Positions 2,990-12,299 of a stretch of 64,000 nt of DNA are shown here, in pieces (within the stretch, counting starts at the first letter, position 1; each line of letters opens with the position of its first letter). This DNA is from Shigella phage JK36, in the sequence record MK962754.1, one strand, 5' to 3'. The notes under the pieces were generated by a model that saw nothing but the letters and a program-made list of their open reading frames with translations, was not told the DNA's origin and did not search any database. Both the position numbers and the translations under genes were made by a program.

Positions 2990-3230
2990 CTCGGTCCCAT
3001 GATTTGGCCATTAATTCGGACATAAATTCTTCAATGCGCGTTTCTTTAGATGGACTTTCACTATTAGAGACCGCAAGTTTGTAATCTGCAATAGGACAGA
3101 ACATATCAAGGTCCATATTAAGGTCGTCTTTGATTTTTTCTTCTGACACATCTTTATCGTATGTGTACAGATAACTATCACATGATTCTGATTTAATGTA
3201 AATTGCTATACTCATCTCAAATTCCTGCAT
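2979..3230 (-). CDS. hypothetical protein (83 aa)
   Basis: ORF with ATG; start overlaps the ECR codons of upstream gene; no recognisable motif. Confidence 0.4.
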   Translation of the reverse strand: MQEFEMSIAIYIKSESCDSYLYTYDKDVSEEKIKDDLNMDLDMFCPIADYKLAVSNSESPSKETRIEEFMSELMAKSWDRDDE

Positions 3231-3709
3231 TCGGTAATAAAACGTTCAACTTCATTATTCTTGGCCTTTATCTTGTCTTTACGTTCCTGTAAACTACTTT
3301 TAACAAGATTAATAATGATGCCTACAGTACCTCCACCAATAATACCACCAATAATACTTACGATAGTAGATGCTAATAAGATAGCAATAATATCAACAAA
3401 ACCGAAAGAACTCACCTTAGTACTAAAAAACCATACCGACGGTACAAATATAATCCATCCTGTTATCCATTGGCACTTATTGAAAAACTTTTCAAGCTCA
3501 GCTTGAGTTGTTCGTATTACTTCATCGATAGGTTGATATCCATTAATGTATCTGTTCACGATAATACCTGCTGGCTGGTCGATTTTAAATTCTTGGCAAA
3601 TATGATTCACTAAGTAGGATGGACATCCTGTCCAATCTACTGAATAGTATGAAATACCTTCGTTGCCATCGTCTATATTAGACCAATATGTTTTGTTAAT
3701 CATTACCAT
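3212..3709 (-). CDS. membrane protein, 'FIxECR-tail' family member (165 aa)
   Basis: Hydrophobic segments (IIAILLASTIVSIIGGIIGGGTVGIIINLV); C-terminal tail ...NNEVERFITECRNLR shared with 4 paralogs. Confidence 0.45.
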   Translation of the reverse strand: MVMINKTYWSNIDDGNEGISYYSVDWTGCPSYLVNHICQEFKIDQPAGIIVNRYINGYQPIDEVIRTTQAELEKFFNKCQWITGWIIFVPSVWFFSTKVSSFGFVDIIAILLASTIVSIIGGIIGGGTVGIIINLVKSSLQERKDKIKAKNNEVERFITECRNLR

Positions 3710-4389
3710 CCTTCCATAGGGAATTCCAGATAAACTTGGGCATTGACACGAATTTCATTGGTAATCTTTTTAACTCGGTCTGTATTACGAGATACACGTC
3801 CGAACCAACGCCATCCGTTACTAATTGCACGAGAACCAGTGTGCCATGTTTGCCAATCAAACTGAAGAAGAGTACGATCTGGAGCTTCCCATTTCTCTAG
3901 TTCACCTTTTTCAATTTTTTCGAGGACTTCTTTGTGCCACTGGCGATAGATAAGTTCGCCATCAGGAATCTGACTGAACTCTGCAGTTCCTGTTGCAAAA
4001 TGAGTAGGACACACGTCAGCGTTAACAAGACCAAGAATATGTTCAGAATGGTAACGAGGGTTGTCATAGTCAGGTTGTCCTGCAGTAATAAAGTGTTGAC
4101 CAACTGGAATATCAGGGCGAGGAACATCGTCATGGTGGTATCCAGGAATAGCAGGATACCAACCAGGCATCAGCATATGAACCCGAGAATCAAATACAAC
4201 ATGTTGATTAGTCCAATCAATTGGGAGATTGGCAATAAAGCTACGAGTGATTGAGCCACCATTATCCCAAGCAAAACCCAAATCACAGTTAAAGAACATT
4301 GGTTCATTTTTGATTCGGTCATTTTGTACGTTATGTGCAAAACTACCTACTGCACGAGCTTGACTATTAAACACTTTAGAACTATTCAT
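3703..4389 (-). CDS. hypothetical protein (228 aa), His-rich motifs
   Basis: Long ORF in operon context; motifs PGWYPAIPGYHHDDVPRPD and HSEHILG; function unknown. Confidence 0.5.
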   Translation of the reverse strand: MNSSKVFNSQARAVGSFAHNVQNDRIKNEPMFFNCDLGFAWDNGGSITRSFIANLPIDWTNQHVVFDSRVHMLMPGWYPAIPGYHHDDVPRPDIPVGQHFITAGQPDYDNPRYHSEHILGLVNADVCPTHFATGTAEFSQIPDGELIYRQWHKEVLEKIEKGELEKWEAPDRTLLQFDWQTWHTGSRAISNGWRWFGRVSRNTDRVKKITNEIRVNAQVYLEFPMEGW

Positions 4390-4390
4390 A

Positions 4391-4696
4391 TTATTTTCCT
4401 CGGCATTCTTTAATGAAATTTTCTAGATTGGTAGATTCAATAGCTTTTTTACGAGCTTCGGCATGTTCTTCTTCAGACAATTTACATTTATAATTGACCC
4501 AGACATTATGGTCGAAACTAGTCGTGGCATATAATAACAATGCTCCAACGAATAGCAAAAACGGCGATAAGAATACAAAACCAGGAACACCATCCATATC
4601 GTACGCCTTTTGTAATACTGCAACAGAAAGAGCTGCGTAAAAAGGTGATGCAAATATTGTTAAAAGGCCAATTCGGTTGGTTTCGCCTAATTTCAT
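4391..4696 (-). CDS. small 2-TM membrane protein, 'FIxECR-tail' family (101 aa)
   Basis: Two hydrophobic helices; C-terminal ...ESTNLENFIKECRGK; ATG with GAGGAGA RBS; PeSL upstream. Confidence 0.5.
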   Translation of the reverse strand: MKLGETNRIGLLTIFASPFYAALSVAVLQKAYDMDGVPGFVFLSPFLLFVGALLLYATTSFDHNVWVNYKCKLSEEEHAEARKKAIESTNLENFIKECRGK

Positions 4697-5035: not shown

Positions 5036-5992
5036 TTATTTGAAAGGTTTTACCATATGGAAATTTTGTTTGAAACGTTTGACGTAATCGTCGTGTCCTA
5101 AGCTTTGGTACATACTTACTACTTTGCTATAATTTTCCCAAGCGAACTCACGGAACCATCCTGATGTGATTGATGTACAGACCTTTTCAAGGGCCATCAT
5201 AAAACTATCACGTGGATGGATTTTAAAGTCGTTAGGAATCTGTGAACGTTCTAACGCTAGTACACATGATTCTTCGTATACGCCGGCCAATTTGACCATT
5301 TCTGGTAATGATTCGAACTTCTCGCGTGAGGTCATGACTTCAGAACCGTCTTTCATATAAAATGTATACGCTGGACGGTCTGTTAGTGCAATGGCTTCAT
5401 GAATAGTATCATGGTCATATGTATAGATGTCACCTTTAAAGAACGCACTTTTAGAAGTGTCAAGAACCGGGTGAGCATAGTTCAAGGTTTCTTTCTGGCG
5501 TTTCAGCATAATTTCAGTAAGTTCATCGTTCAGTGTAACACCTTTACCACGAAGATACTGAATATGGTTCATAGTCTTTAAAAAGAACGGATTATTTTTC
5601 TTGAAACGATGGGACATCTTAATTGCAAGACACATCTCAGGAGTTGCCCAGTAAAACCCGTTCAAACGGTCTTTAGTCAAATTTTTCTTGGCGTATTTTA
5701 AAAGGTCATAAGAAGACGTGAAATCTTCAGGAGTGAGTTCACCGACTAGTTCGCGAACGTTAGTGAGAGCCGGAACGATGTATGCTTCAAAATGAGTTTC
5801 GCGTCCATTATGGAAGCATTTGAAAACTTGGACATCAGGGTTATCTTGGTGAACATATACACCCATCATTTGATTTTTGAATGCATTCCAAGAACATTGG
5901 TCTGCAATAAAGTCCCAATCACTATTTTTAATAGCGCTAGAATCAATAAGACCGTGATAGTGAAGTGCACGAGAACCAATAACTAACATCAT
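5036..5992 (-). CDS. hypothetical protein (318 aa), possible nucleotidyltransferase-fold N-terminus
   Basis: Largest novel ORF; N-terminal IGSRAL...(17 aa)...SDWDFIAD resembles the G[GS]...D-x-D signature of pol-beta-type NTases (weak). Confidence 0.5.
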   Translation of the reverse strand: MMLVIGSRALHYHGLIDSSAIKNSDWDFIADQCSWNAFKNQMMGVYVHQDNPDVQVFKCFHNGRETHFEAYIVPALTNVRELVGELTPEDFTSSYDLLKYAKKNLTKDRLNGFYWATPEMCLAIKMSHRFKKNNPFFLKTMNHIQYLRGKGVTLNDELTEIMLKRQKETLNYAHPVLDTSKSAFFKGDIYTYDHDTIHEAIALTDRPAYTFYMKDGSEVMTSREKFESLPEMVKLAGVYEESCVLALERSQIPNDFKIHPRDSFMMALEKVCTSITSGWFREFAWENYSKVVSMYQSLGHDDYVKRFKQNFHMVKPFK

Positions 5993-6020: not shown

Positions 6021-6260
6021 TTAAATTTCACGACATGCGATATTATATTCATCCCAGAGGTCATCATGTGAAGCCTCTACCAATGGAACGATTGTACCGT
6101 TTATGTCTTCATTATAAGGGCAAATTGTACAGTGCGCATCTTCGAATCGGATGCCTTTGTGTTCAGATTTTTTATAACGCATATCGAATATCTTTGCAAA
6201 CTTTTCACGAGTAATGGTTTTACCAACCACTTTGGTTCCGATACTTTCGTAATAAATCAT
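6021..6260 (-). CDS. small Cys-containing protein (79 aa)
   Basis: Start moved to ATG with GGAG RBS (MIYYESIG...); contains HCTICP motif; follows PeSL. Confidence 0.45.
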   Translation of the reverse strand: MIYYESIGTKVVGKTITREKFAKIFDMRYKKSEHKGIRFEDAHCTICPYNEDINGTIVPLVEASHDDLWDEYNIACREI

Positions 6261-6273
6261 TGTGGACTCCATT

Positions 6274-6322: not shown

Positions 6323-6520
6323 TTAGCAAGAATAACTAGATGATACCCAGCCTTGAACAGTGATACTATTGTGGGATAATGAGATCGCGTCCTGGAGATT
6401 CAGACCTGCGTTATCTTCAATCCATAATGTAACTTCTTCGCGTTCTTCTGTTGCAATTTGGAACAGGTTTTCCAGAGCAGCTACTGCCGTACGTACAGCA
6501 CAATCTAATTCACGAGACAT
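6323..6520 (-). CDS. small protein, 'WVxSSxxC' paralog 3 (65 aa)
   Basis: C-terminus ...QGWVSSSYSC; N-terminal helix similar to neighbours; tandem with 6530..6802 and 6812..7117. Confidence 0.5.
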   Translation of the reverse strand: MSRELDCAVRTAVAALENLFQIATEEREEVTLWIEDNAGLNLQDAISLSHNSITVQGWVSSSYSC

Positions 6521-6529
6521 ATTGTTTCC

Positions 6530-6802
6530 TTAGCAAGTGTGAGAAGATGCGACCCAACCACCAGTTTCGAGGCTCAGGTTGTAGTCGTATTGGTAAACGT
6601 CAGCCCATTCAGCATAGCCGTTTTTTGTACAACGTTCAAGATCGGCTTTAAGATGTCCGGGTGAATGATAGGTTCCACCCATACCATAAGCTGGGTACAA
6701 GTTGAATGTTGTGTTTTGTTTATCAGCAATTTCTTTGGCAGCCTCAATAGCTGCATAGATTTTTGCTACAGCTTCAGCCAGTTCGGTTTGTTCTTTAGAC
6801 AT
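6530..6802 (-). CDS. small protein, 'WVxSSxxC' paralog 2 (90 aa)
   Basis: C-terminus ...GGWVASSHTC; stop overlaps RBS of next gene. Confidence 0.5.
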   Translation of the reverse strand: MSKEQTELAEAVAKIYAAIEAAKEIADKQNTTFNLYPAYGMGGTYHSPGHLKADLERCTKNGYAEWADVYQYDYNLSLETGGWVASSHTC

Positions 6803-6811
6803 AATGATTCC

Positions 6812-7117
6812 TTAGCACAACGCAGAAGACGAAACCCAAGCACCTTCAGTAATAACGTATCCATTACCTTCACGCTTAACATCGCCGCCATTATTTTCAA
6901 TTTCATCTTTCATCCACTGGGATACGATTTCACCCTTAGGATAATAAGTACGACCGCTACCATAATCACCTACAGAAAATGATACGGCATATTGGTCTGC
7001 GATCTTTGTTGCTTCTTCTTCGATACGTTCAGCTTGATTCAGAAGTTTATAAATTGCATCTGAAGCGGATTTGGCATCATTAAACTCTGGTACTTTAATT
7101 TCAATAATCTTACTCAT
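6812..7117 (-). CDS. small protein, 'WVxSSxxC' paralog 1 (101 aa)
   Basis: C-terminus ...GAWVSSSALC; translationally coupled (ATGA overlap) to upstream membrane-protein gene. Confidence 0.5.
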   Translation of the reverse strand: MSKIIEIKVPEFNDAKSASDAIYKLLNQAERIEEEATKIADQYAVSFSVGDYGSGRTYYPKGEIVSQWMKDEIENNGGDVKREGNGYVITEGAWVSSSALC

Positions 7118-7473
7118 TTTCTACATTCCTTAATAAAGTTTTCGATTGTTTCATTTTCACGTCTAGCTAGGAGTTCATTATAACTAATCATTTGAGAAGC
7201 GTAAACCTTTTTATTTTTCTTGTTGTGGTTTATAAAATCGTAGTAAAAATAGACTACAGTACAAAATGATGCGATGGATGCAAAGGCTTGGGTGTACCGT
7301 AAGTCCTGCCATTGGTCTGTGAATCCACCAGTGTTCCCTATAAATCCTAACACAACGCCGTCAATAAGAAATCCAACTAATCCAAAGGCAAATCCCATGC
7401 CAATACTCATAATAAAAATTAGAATGTTCTCACCAAGAGAAGGCCATACGGTTAAGAGTTGAGGCTTTTGCAT
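7114..7473 (-). CDS. membrane protein, 'FIxECR-tail' family (119 aa)
   Basis: Hydrophobic helices; C-terminal ...ENETIENFIKECRK. Confidence 0.5.
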   Translation of the reverse strand: MQKPQLLTVWPSLGENILIFIMSIGMGFAFGLVGFLIDGVVLGFIGNTGGFTDQWQDLRYTQAFASIASFCTVVYFYYDFINHNKKNKKVYASQMISYNELLARRENETIENFIKECRK

Positions 7474-7877
7474 CTTATTTCCTTAACGAATTCCATAGCT
7501 TCTTCATATTCATACTTTTTAACAGCTTCATCATACTGAGCTTGGGCTTTTGCGCACTGAACTCTCCATTCTCTTACTCGAGCTCTGTGATGACGGCCTT
7601 GGTGCCAATATCCAATCCAATTAATAGGCATCAATAAAAACGGTACAATAAGTGGTGCGACGAACATTAATGAAAATGCTGCATCAGACGATATAACTTC
7701 ACTAGAATCTAAAACAGCTCCTATAATCATAAAGATTAAAAATGCTAAAGCTAAAATAGGGCCAAATAGTACTTCATTTGGGATTAATTTACGCTTATAT
7801 TCATACGCCCAGGGCTTACTTGGCATGTATAGGGTTGGCTTTGACATATTCTCTACATTCCATAATAAATTGCTCAA
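7452..7877 (-). CDS. membrane protein, divergent 'FIxECR-tail' family (141 aa; alternative start at 7847)
   Basis: Two hydrophobic helices; tail ...EEAMEFVKEIRCKSLNS; start ambiguous between 7877 and 7847. Confidence 0.45.
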   Translation of the reverse strand: MSNLLWNVENMSKPTLYMPSKPWAYEYKRKLIPNEVLFGPILALAFLIFMIIGAVLDSSEVISSDAAFSLMFVAPLIVPFLLMPINWIGYWHQGRHHRARVREWRVQCAKAQAQYDEAVKKYEYEEAMEFVKEIRCKSLNS

Positions 7878-8439
7878 GGATTAAATTGTTAGTGAAATTA
7901 GGACTAACAACCATAGTTTCATAAAGCGCATCAATAGCACTTAAAGCATCAACTCTTTTAAGCAAAGGCTTGCCTTCATACATAGTTTCAGAATCGATGA
8001 TTAACGTAAAGTAATATTTTTTATTATCGACTAGAACTTCTGTATCGATATAAAACATATTAGACCTCAGAAGCTTATCTCTAAAACCATAATAATCTTC
8101 AGAGCGTTCGCTGATATATTCCCATTCAGTGTTTAAACAACAAACAGACCATGTAGGAGCAACGAAATCAGTGAATCTAATATCATGGTCTGCAACTAGT
8201 TTAGCAATAGCTCCGATATCATGAATCATAATACCTGGGGCTAATAAAGATTTTCTGCTATGGCTAGCCGTTTTCTCGGTGGTCTCATAAGAAGACGACC
8301 AGTACCATTTACGTCCGGTTGCAACATATCGTAATGAATCAACTAAAGACGTAGGTGGATTTACCTTATCTCGGAACTCTTCGAACATTGAGTCAATATC
8401 ATTATTTTGGTTTCGCATGTTAACTCCTTTATTATCCAA
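7816..8439 (-). CDS. hypothetical protein (207 aa) with internal FIMECR motif near C-terminus
   Basis: ORF in operon; ...LEQFIMECREYVKANPIHAK near C-terminus; no obvious TM segment. Confidence 0.5.
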   Translation of the reverse strand: MDNKGVNMRNQNNDIDSMFEEFRDKVNPPTSLVDSLRYVATGRKWYWSSSYETTEKTASHSRKSLLAPGIMIHDIGAIAKLVADHDIRFTDFVAPTWSVCCLNTEWEYISERSEDYYGFRDKLLRSNMFYIDTEVLVDNKKYYFTLIIDSETMYEGKPLLKRVDALSAIDALYETMVVSPNFTNNLILEQFIMECREYVKANPIHAK

Positions 8440-11468: not shown

Positions 11469-11544
11469 TGGTCGAGACAGTAGGGATCGAACCTACGACC
11501 TAGGACTTAGAAGGTCCTTGCTCTTCCTTCTGAGCTATGCCTCG
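11469..11544 (-). tRNA. tRNA-Arg (anticodon TCT)
   Basis: Hand-folded cloverleaf on minus strand: acceptor CGAGGCA/TGTCTCG, T-loop GGTTCGATCC, anticodon loop CTTCTAA, CCA encoded. Confidence 0.8.
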
Positions 11545-11548
11545 TATT

Positions 11549-11623
11549 TGGCGGACGTGATAGGATTCGAACCTATAACCAATCGCTTAACAGGCGATCG
11601 CTCTGCCATTGAGCTACACATCC
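11549..11623 (-). tRNA. tRNA-Asn (anticodon GTT)
   Basis: Acceptor GGATGTG/CACGTCC, T-loop GGTTCGAATCC, anticodon loop CTGTTAA, CCA encoded; not in T4's set. Confidence 0.75.
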
Positions 11624-11627
11624 AAAT

Positions 11628-11714
11628 TGGTGGGGAGTGATGGAGTCGAACCACCCGAGTCGCAATGACAATGGATTTACAGTCCACACCGCTACCTCTA
11701 CGGGATAACTCCCC
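11628..11714 (-). tRNA. tRNA-Tyr (anticodon GTA), long variable arm
   Basis: Acceptor GGGGAGT/ACTCCCC, anticodon loop CTGTAAA, long variable arm, CCA encoded; not in T4's set. Confidence 0.75.
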
Positions 11715-11726
11715 TAATTCATAATT

Positions 11727-11801
11727 TGGTGGCCCTGGGTGGAATTGAACCACCATCTGGCGATTATGAGTCGCTTGCTTGAACCTTCCAGCTACAGGGC
11801 C
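11727..11801 (-). tRNA. tRNA with anticodon CAT (Met, or Ile2 if lysidinylated)
   Basis: Acceptor GGCCCTG/CAGGGCC, T-arm GGTGGTTCAATTCCACC, anticodon loop CTCATAA. Confidence 0.7.
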
Positions 11802-11802
11802 T

Positions 11803-11878
11803 TGGTGCTGATTGACGGAATCGAACCGCCGACCTTCTCATTACAAGTGAGTTGCTCTACCTACTGAGCTAAATCAGC
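11803..11878 (-). tRNA. tRNA-Thr (anticodon TGT)
   Basis: Acceptor GCTGATT/AATCAGC, T-loop GGTTCGATTCC, anticodon loop CTTGTAA. Confidence 0.8.
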
Positions 11879-11883
11879 AAAAC

Positions 11884-11973
11884 TGGCGGAGGCGATAGGA
11901 TTTGAACCTATGAGTCGCCGGAGCGACTGCCGGTTTTCAAGACCGGTGCATTAAACCACTCTGCCACGCCTCC
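11884..11973 (-). tRNA. tRNA-Ser (anticodon TGA), long variable arm
   Basis: Acceptor GGAGGCG/CGCCTCC, anticodon loop CTTGAAA, long variable arm, CCA encoded. Confidence 0.8.
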
Positions 11974-11975
11974 AG

Positions 11976-12049
11976 TCTCCATACAAGGATTTGAACCTTG
12001 GACCTCCTGATCCCAAATCAGGCGCTCTACCAAACTGAGCTACACGGAG
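11976..12049 (-). tRNA. tRNA-Pro (anticodon TGG), CCA not encoded
   Basis: Acceptor CTCCGTG/TATGGAG, anticodon loop TTTGGGA; 3' end followed by CTG not CCA. Confidence 0.75.
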
Positions 12050-12059
12050 TAAATTAAAT

Positions 12060-12133
<74 letters not shown>

Positions 12134-12138
12134 AAATT

Positions 12139-12225
12139 TGGTGCGAGAAGTGGGACTCGAACCCACAAGGAAATCATTCCGCAGCATTTTAAGTGCTGTG
12201 CCTTTACCAATTTGGCCATTCTCGC
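12139..12225 (-). tRNA. tRNA-Leu (anticodon TAA), long variable arm
   Basis: Acceptor GCGAGAA/TTCTCGC, anticodon loop CTTAAAA, long variable arm. Confidence 0.8.
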
Positions 12226-12226
12226 G

Positions 12227-12299
12227 CTGGGAATAAAGGACTCGAACCTTTGCATCCTGGAATCAAAATCCAGTGCCTTACCAACTTGGCTAATTCCCA
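12227..12299 (-). tRNA. tRNA-Gln (anticodon TTG), CCA not encoded; 1 nt from tRNA-Leu
   Basis: Acceptor TGGGAAT/ATTCCCA, T-arm AAGGTTCGAGTCCTTT, anticodon loop TTTTGAT. Confidence 0.75.

Follow-up and report, generated by a model that had tools for sequence, protein, structure and literature searches.

A predicted nucleotidyltransferase-fold enzyme of virulent phages and the small proteins with an invariant C-terminal tail encoded upstream of it

Introduction

Class II CCA-adding enzymes and poly(A) polymerases, which are among the known systems closest to the locus described here, consist of a nucleotidyltransferase (NTase) head and a helical neck, to which the E. coli enzyme adds an HD phosphohydrolase domain. 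The protein-targeting NTases of the pol-beta superfamily usually modify tyrosine.

The closest precedent for an NTase encoded beside the protein that it covalently modifies is MntA-HepT, in which the minimal NTase MntA adenylylates the product of the neighboring gene (PMC7641770). MenT1, MenT3, and MenT4 act on the 3' ends of tRNA (PMC7450476, PMC10435456). Phage NTases of the NrdC.11/RlaP type were reported to make competitor cyclic dinucleotides (Ho et al., 2022, bioRxiv 10.1101/2022.06.09.495361).

The present analysis concerns a gene for a 318-aa protein and the small-protein genes located upstream of it in the DNA of Shigella phage JK36 (MK962754.1); the whole stretch analyzed, 64,000 nucleotides, is referred to as the window. 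The arrangement is analogous to that of the MenT/AbiEii systems (DUF1814; MenAT, AbiE), with their upstream antitoxins. The enzyme differs from these proteins in that the sequence identity is only about 8–12%, and its C-terminal lobe has double the size and otherwise resembles no fold in the PDB, while the partner family here is multi-copy and carries an invariant W-x-x-S-S-x-x-C tail. Membership in DUF1814/AbiEii by sequence was rejected: PF08843 did not match the window enzyme at E ≤ 10 and matched only one of 141 family members, at E 0.021. Neither an AbiEi/COG5340 nor a MenA antitoxin was found upstream of the enzyme, and the small proteins (PHROG 899/4882) are unrelated to AbiEi and MenA.

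MntA-HepT likewise places a pol-beta NTase next to its protein substrate, but the acceptor proposed here is a C-terminal Ser-Ser rather than a tyrosine near the active site, and the enzyme has the additional DUF7275 lobe. A MNT-HEPN pair was ruled out, as the partner alignment keeps only W, S, S, and C; it contains no Rx4-6H motif indicative of a HEPN RNase, and the partners have no HEPN Pfam match. ANT(2'')-Ia and LnuA share no sequence similarity with the enzyme, which is found in no resistance context and, unlike them, has a conserved protein partner.

The NrdC.11/RlaP NTases are likewise encoded by phages, carry GS and SDWD motifs and reside in accessory islands near NAD and methyltransferase genes. 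Their signature (PF10127) is GS-x-AY[GAN]T-x4-SDxD, with a spacing of 10, whereas the DUF7277/DUF7275 enzyme has GS-R-ALHYHGLIDSSAIKN-SDWD, with a spacing of 17. Assignment to this family, suspected from the SDWD motif, was rejected, since there was no PF10127 match and no members of the present enzyme family were listed in Table S1 of Ho et al.

What sets the locus apart is that a predicted fold of known catalytic type is joined to a second lobe that is new and accompanied by a new family of partners bearing an invariant tail. No publication naming DUF7275, DUF7277, RB69ORF134c, PF23940, PF23942, or phrog_2141 was found in the library searched, and broader literature searches did not reveal the enzyme/small-protein module.

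Results and Discussion

The enzyme gene and its distribution

The window derives from a Mosigvirus, a T4-like phage, and over its first 25 kb shares 98% identity with Escherichia phages p000y and APCEc01. The enzyme gene starts at an ATG codon, with a GAGGA Shine-Dalgarno sequence 8 nt before it. It is one of roughly eight ORFs that form an inserted block between e.2 and e.3; the lysozyme gene e and nudE are nearby, the latter about 2 kb downstream. In T4, e.2 abuts e.3 and this block is absent, in line with the first-pass annotation, which had recognized no named T4 protein in the product. The annotation had also called the ORF the largest uncharacterized one in the island, and according to the ORF list no longer one exists within the 3–8.5 kb stretch.

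Table 1. Coordinates of the enzyme gene, its conserved elements and the partner genes in the window.
Feature	Position	Strand	Remarks
Enzyme gene, 318 aa + stop	5036..5992	minus	RB69ORF134c homolog; DUF7277 + DUF7275; PHROG 2141
N-terminal lobe, residues 2-101, predicted pol-beta-type NTase fold (DUF7277)	5690..5989	minus	
G6-S7, NTase motif I, beta1/alpha1 junction	5972..5977	minus	invariant in full and short types
S24-D25-W26-D27, NTase motif II (putative metal-binding carboxylates), start of beta2	5912..5923	minus	
Residues 32-92, alpha2 and beta3-beta5 sheet with E69	5717..5899	minus	deleted in the short, partner-less type
C-terminal helical lobe, residues 120-305, DUF7275	5078..5635	minus	no convincing PDB structural relative
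H194-D195-T-I-H198, invariant His/Asp cluster	5399..5413	minus	151/151 representatives
K270-VCTSITSGWFR-E282, most conserved segment	5147..5185	minus	
Partner 1, 65 aa, pI 4.2, ends ...GWVSSSYSC-stop	6323..6520	minus	PHROG 4882; RB69ORF136c homolog
Partner 2, 90 aa, pI 5.0, YGMGGTY loop, ends ...GGWVASSHTC-stop	6530..6802	minus	PHROG 899; RB69ORF137c homolog
Partner 3, 101 aa, pI 4.6, YGSGRTYYP loop, ends ...GAWVSSSALC-stop	6812..7117	minus	PHROG 899; RB69ORF139c homolog

A tblastn search revealed homologs of the enzyme in 733 phage records. Grouped by the first word of the organism name, these fall under Escherichia, Acinetobacter, Aeromonas, Pseudomonas, Vibrio, Klebsiella, Gordonia, Streptomyces, Stenotrophomonas, and 36 more. 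An exhaustive HMMER search matched 1230 clusters (50% identity, E ≤ 1e-3), and the phages carrying the family include T4-like and jumbo phages, Phapecoctavirus, Otagovirus, Menderavirus, Vibrio and Aeromonas phages, and actinophages. This number of phage records and clusters argues that the 318-aa ORF is a real gene, far beyond chance. The protein matches two Pfam families, DUF7277 (residues 2–101, E 2e-27, 96.2 bits) and DUF7275 (residues 120–305, E 6e-79, 264.8 bits), both with a gathering cut-off of 27, as well as PHROG 2141 (E 9e-150); none of the three has an assigned function.

A search of 185,579 species genomes of bacteria and archaea yielded no more than eight loci with homologs, all on contigs of metagenome-assembled genomes (MAGs), and those contexts that were inspected are phage-like, with genes for NAMPT, Nudix, and DNA and RNA ligases. 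The family is phage-restricted, with virulent phages as essentially its sole carriers. One homolog on a 3-kb contig (P0054) has PF06693 in place of DUF7277, fused to DUF7275, which represents either a domain swap or an assembly artefact.

The N-terminal lobe has a predicted nucleotidyltransferase fold

The first-pass annotation had proposed a pol-beta-type NTase fold, with reservations, from the N-terminal peptide IGSRALHYHGLIDSSAIKNSDWDFIAD, which corresponds to residues 5–31 of the enzyme. The conserved motifs, an AlphaFold2 model and Foldseek matches of this model now support that reading. G6, S7, D25, D27, and the third carboxylate E69 (codon 5786–5788, minus strand) are invariant in 64 homologs with identities down to 47%, so that both the Gly-Ser and Asp residues and the acidic triad, conservation of which had been suggested as a check, are kept. 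In 151 diverse representatives G6 is present in all 146 aligned sequences and S7 in 143 of the 146; D25 is Asp in 145 and Glu in two, and D27 is Asp in 146 and Glu in one. The position of E69 is occupied by Glu in 129 and by Asp in 16 of these 151 representatives, and by Glu in 84 and Asp in 11 of the 97 loci with the full-length type of the enzyme. The hG[GS] motif, V4-I5-G6-S7, was found at 133 of 134 loci of both enzyme types. S7 and D25 are separated by 17 residues, a spacing that is indeed on the long side, as the annotation had remarked.

The model, built from the alignment, is of high confidence, with a pLDDT of 93.2 and a pTM of 0.87. It places G-S at the junction of a strand (residues 2–5) and a helix (residues 6–12), D25-W-D27-F at the start of the strand formed by residues 26–31, and E69 within the strand 64–73. 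As modeled, this arrangement of G-S, D-x-D, and E69 is that of a canonical pol-beta NTase. Foldseek matched the model to solved NTases, namely 5uvd (E 1.2e-3) and MenT1 (E 3.4e-3). According to the model, the enzyme is a member of the pol-beta superfamily at the level of fold, and its activity is a predicted one.

Single-sequence and profile searches of the PDB returned only noise, such as PsaB; the search of PADLOC profiles produced no matches and that of NCBIfam a sub-threshold match to HisJ only. Weak Pfam matches to NTase-type or related families of unassigned function (DUF6036, DUF4269) and AbiEii are scattered over the family members and agree with the predicted fold.

The C-terminal lobe contains a conserved polar cluster

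The DUF7275 lobe is better conserved than the NTase lobe and has a pI of 8.6. In 141 diverse sequences the residues K125, H128, F137, K139, H194, D195, H198, P207, V219, E240, E241, L245, E248, R249, G278, and R281 are invariant. Among them K125 is located in the first helix of the lobe and D195, E240, and E241 are acidic. In the MenT toxins a conserved Lys and Asp of the C-terminal lobe (motifs III/IV; K189 and D211 in MenT3) build the active site together with motifs I and II; any correspondence of K125 and the acidic residues to them would be conjectural. A HEPN/KEN-like nature of the lobe, considered after a match to the KEN region of RNase L (E 0.11), was dropped for want of both an Rx4-6H motif and structural support.

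Small proteins with a conserved tail are encoded upstream of the enzyme

Unbiased clustering of neighboring genes was performed for 95 loci, comprising 80 IMG/VR loci, phage and MAG loci, and the window. The neighbor that recurs most widely is a family of small proteins without annotation, which BLAST clustering of the ORFs placed in 10 of the 36 lineage groups; no other obligate partner genes were found in these groups. One to four genes of this family are located in tandem directly upstream of the enzyme gene on the same strand. The three partner ORFs of the window are spaced 9 nt apart, and only one 83-aa ORF lies between them and the enzyme gene. This Cys-containing ORF (PHROG 3723, 6021–6272, minus strand) occupies the same place in Mosigvirus, but its position is not conserved in other lineages.

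The partners consist of an N-terminal amphipathic helix, often followed by a YGxGGxYYP loop, then an acidic linker and the W-x-x-S-S-x-x-C tail. Their bodies are hypervariable, with a mean column identity of 24%, and only W, S, S, and C are conserved. The median pI of the partners is 4.4. No Pfam or PDB relatives of the partner ORFs (PHROG 899/4882) were found, and comparison of the small-protein profile with the PDB yielded only generic coiled-coil and designed-helix matches. The same profile recovered only 25 clusters among 5.8 billion proteins, all from phages or metagenomes.

The association was examined with a six-frame regular expression for W..SS..[CY]-stop, which needs no ORF calling, at 94 loci (1.69 Mb). 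It matched 171 ORFs, of which 167 are on the same strand as the enzyme and 157 have their end in the 3-kb region upstream of the enzyme start; at least one tail ORF is present at 83 of the 94 loci. Reversed sequences, used as a null, gave five matches in 2.14 Mb. The whole window contains exactly three matches, all of them the partner ORFs upstream of the enzyme. The reverse test was consistent with this result: for each of the four distant small-protein matches whose contigs were inspected, a DUF7277+DUF7275 gene was located 0.2–1.5 kb downstream on the same strand.

Partner ORFs were recorded at 89 of 97 loci with the full-type enzyme. Five of the eight partner-less loci have a compressed tail, W-x-S-S-x-C, just upstream, and overall about 95 of 98 full-type loci carry a partner. 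Covariation of enzyme residues with the standard or compressed tail spacing was not detected; both tail types co-occur in many loci. The enzyme and the tailed small proteins constitute a near-obligate two-part module in hundreds of phage genomes. Synteny that is found in both directions and across very distant phage lineages would be hard to explain without a functional link. The pairing makes an anonymous DUF sharply testable, since the four invariant residues of the tail, the catalytic triad and the three enzyme residues linked to the partner can all be mutated.

A short enzyme type lacks the partners

Homologs of 250–265 aa from actinophages and some Vibrio phages represent a short type of the enzyme. 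Strand 1, G-S, helix 1, and the D-x-D of strand 2 are all retained, and DUF7275 follows directly. Their first 30 or so residues still match DUF7277, and residues ~32–92, including the hairpin with E69, are missing. Invariant in both types are G6, S7, D25, D27, K125, H128, H194, D195, H198, E240, E241, E248, and R249. Because the short type retains them, GS, DxD, and the DUF7275 polar cluster make up the conserved core of the family. C272, S277, and R281, present in 97 of 97 full-type enzymes, are replaced in the short type by I/A/V, K, and A, respectively. E69 and these three residues are restricted to the full type, therefore the third carboxylate and a dedicated motif occur only together with the tailed partner.

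For tabulation of the partners 33 short-type loci were added. The short-type loci (L005–L007, L104–L136), from actinophage and other viral contigs, have no W..SS..C partner: one was scored among 37 loci, and none remained among 36 after one locus (L068) was corrected as a mis-trimmed full-type enzyme. The dependence of the partner on the enzyme type has a Fisher p of about 3e-25, a value that overstates independence, as the two types are essentially two clades.

The neighbors of the short type are RNA-repair cassettes, with a T4 Rnl1-type ligase about 0.7 kb downstream, PNKP, a PF09414 ligase, a PolyA_pol/CCA head, and NADAR. The persistence of GS/DxD and the DUF7275 cluster in partner-less loci suggests that the shared catalytic core has a function independent of the small proteins.

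Possible mechanism and alternative explanations

We tentatively propose, at somewhat less than even odds, that the tail docks in the active-site cleft and that a tail serine is nucleotidylylated. G6-S7 of the N-terminal lobe would bind the NTP phosphate, and D25, D27, and E69 would form a two-metal site. The basic, helical and family-specific DUF7275 lobe would add its cluster of invariant Lys, His, Asp, Glu, and Arg residues to the inter-lobe cleft. The enzyme and its one to four acidic partners from the upstream genes would function as one module. The W-x-x-S-S-x-x-C tail of the partners would dock into the inter-lobe active site, with Trp as an anchor and the terminal Cys or carboxylate as a second recognition or reactive group. 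Transfer of the nucleotidyl group from NTP to the serine hydroxyl would yield a Ser-O-NMP phosphodiester. What the module delivers would be the modified small proteins themselves, which plausibly act in counter-defence or host takeover, a role suggested by the islands that house the module.

Hypervariable partner bodies, with only the four tail residues conserved, would be expected of small proteins that the conserved enzyme reads by their tail. The charges of the acidic partners and the basic C-terminal lobe are complementary, which also speaks for docking, and adenylylation of a neighbor-encoded protein by MntA provides a precedent. The usual preference of protein-targeting pol-beta NTases for tyrosine counts against serine as the acceptor, as does the action of the closest structural relatives, MenT1/3/4, on tRNA 3' ends. 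In addition, simple Ser-NMPylation leaves the invariant terminal Cys without an explanation, no enzyme residue covaries with the tail spacing, and the short type retains the shared catalytic core although it has no partner.

The enzyme may instead be an RNA or tRNA 3'-end NTase, either blocking, as MenT/AbiEii, or repairing, as CCA-adding and poly(A)-adding enzymes, with the small proteins acting as inhibitors, regulators or RNA mimics. Their tail would then plug the active site, with Trp in the base pocket, while Ser-Ser and either the carboxylate or the thiol of the Cys would occupy the metal/phosphate site. Plugging or regulation by a small protein has a parallel in the 68-aa MenA1, which acts on MenT1. 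The structural relationship to the MenT enzymes is in favor of this explanation, and the RNA-repair context of the short type favors an RNA substrate for the shared core. However, this neighborhood evidence was gathered without a formal null, and the accessory regions of large phages commonly carry RNA-repair and tRNA genes. A toxin-antitoxin pair is further opposed by the unusual presence of one to four diverged paralogous "antitoxins" with hypervariable bodies per locus; constitutive carriage of a MenT-like toxin by virulent phages would be hard to understand, and the partner-less short type would be an unregulated toxin. The near-complete lack of AbiEii profile matches and of an AbiEi-type antitoxin argues against an AbiEii-like system in particular. 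We consider an RNA-end function the main rival, slightly less likely than nucleotidylylation of the tail. Small proteins gating an RNA-end NTase would, if confirmed, be a phage counterpart of MenAT/AbiE linked to phage tRNA repair.

The otherwise unexplained Cys would be accommodated by crosslinking similar to that of RiPPs, in which the NTase lobe would NMPylate the tail Ser for beta-elimination and DUF7275, with its His, Cys, and Glu residues including C272, would guide the attack of the Cys to form a thioether; the product would be a lanthionine-like ring or another Ser/Cys-derived modification. The several tandem precursor-like genes beside one modifying enzyme, the lanthionine-ring spacing of S-S-x-x-C with all three residues invariant, and the conservation of enzyme C272 only in the presence of partners are consistent with such chemistry. 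No recognizable RiPP enzyme domain (LanB, LanC, LanM, LanKC, or YcaO) was found, and we regard this route as very unlikely. Slightly less improbable, but still unlikely, is that the enzyme alone acts on a small molecule or nucleotide, as ANT(2'')/LnuA or as a NrdC.11-type synthase of signal or decoy nucleotides, and that the partners are merely syntenic. Synteny in both search directions across distant lineages and the partner-linked enzyme residues argue against it, and the NrdC.11 variant is opposed by the differences in motif spacing and profile and the absence from Table S1 of Ho et al. described above; moreover, both families co-occur in one locus (L097), thus they are not redundant. The persistence of the short type without the third carboxylate and most of the beta-sheet could indicate a catalytically dead scaffold, an NTase-fold protein kept for binding only. 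The invariance of G-S, D-x-D, and about ten DUF7275 polar residues at more than 130 loci of both types is, by contrast, the signature of an active site, and makes a dead scaffold highly improbable.

Taken more broadly than serine nucleotidylylation, a hitherto unrecognized phage-specific system that places a nucleotide or a nucleotide-activated Ser/Cys crosslink on the tail of a fast-diversifying family of acidic proteins, with the modified small proteins as the active agents, is conceivable, and we would give it roughly one chance in three or a little less. The tail-modified proteins could then be, for example, counter-defence effectors or nucleic-acid or nucleotide mimics, and DUF7275 a new catalytic or substrate-recognition fold. 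If the tail is indeed nucleotidylylated or crosslinked, phages would possess a post-translational modification system of a new kind, and a fold without a solved relative would gain a function.

Genomic context

The neighbors of the full-type enzyme in the 36 lineage groups include the large subunit of ribonucleotide reductase (RNR; eight groups), ThyX (six), NAMPT (six), the small subunit of RNR (five), calcineurin-like phosphoesterase (five) and ATP-dependent DNA ligase (five). By their distribution these genes appear to be context and not partners. At 20 viral loci of five lineage groups (for example, L067:2428-3291) the next gene downstream of the NTase-fold enzyme, at a median distance of +418 bp, is that of a calcineurin-like metallophosphoesterase (PF00149). 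The phosphoesterase could act on a phosphodiester product.

RNA-repair, tRNA, and NAMPT genes were counted uniformly with tblastn and ARAGORN in a separate grouping of all loci at 60% identity. RNA-repair or tRNA genes were found near 10 of 16 short-type and 13 of 29 full-type groups and NAMPT near 7 of 29 full-type groups, associations that were counted without a genome-wide null and are suggestive only. The window itself contains ten tRNA genes (Arg, Asn, Tyr, Met, Thr, Ser, Pro, Gly, Leu, and Gln; 11469–12299, minus strand) 5.5 kb upstream of the module.

In three metagenomic phage contigs (L097, L099, and L101) the module is located beside genes for Tad3 (PF25185), a RlaP/NrdC.11-type NTase, RNA ligase, and NAMPT, along with Macro, rIIA/rIIB, and a Prs-like and NAPRTase-like pair resembling the NAD+ reconstitution pathway. 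These neighbors are known or candidate counter-defence genes. The adjacency of the module to Tad3, NAD-salvage, Macro, RNA-ligase, and tRNA genes indicates that it probably belongs to the phage-host arms race.

The same insertion of the window contains the second-largest uncharacterized ORF of the island, which encodes a 228-aa homolog of RB69ORF132c (3703–4389, minus strand; PHROG 1843) and has no Pfam match. Five flanking ORFs, all on the minus strand, share a C-terminal F-[IVL]-x-E-[CI]-R motif no more than 11 residues from the stop: e.2 (3212–3709), a RB69ORF133c-like ORF (4391–4696), e.3 (7114–7473), e.4 (7452–7877), and an e.5-like ORF (7816–8439). Their endings are ...FITECRNLR, ...FIKECRGK, ...FIKECRK, ...FVKEIRCKSLNS, and ...FIMECREYVKANPIHAK. 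Several of these ORFs are annotated as predicted membrane proteins in JS09, and the reversed sequence of the 64 kb gave one match to the motif.
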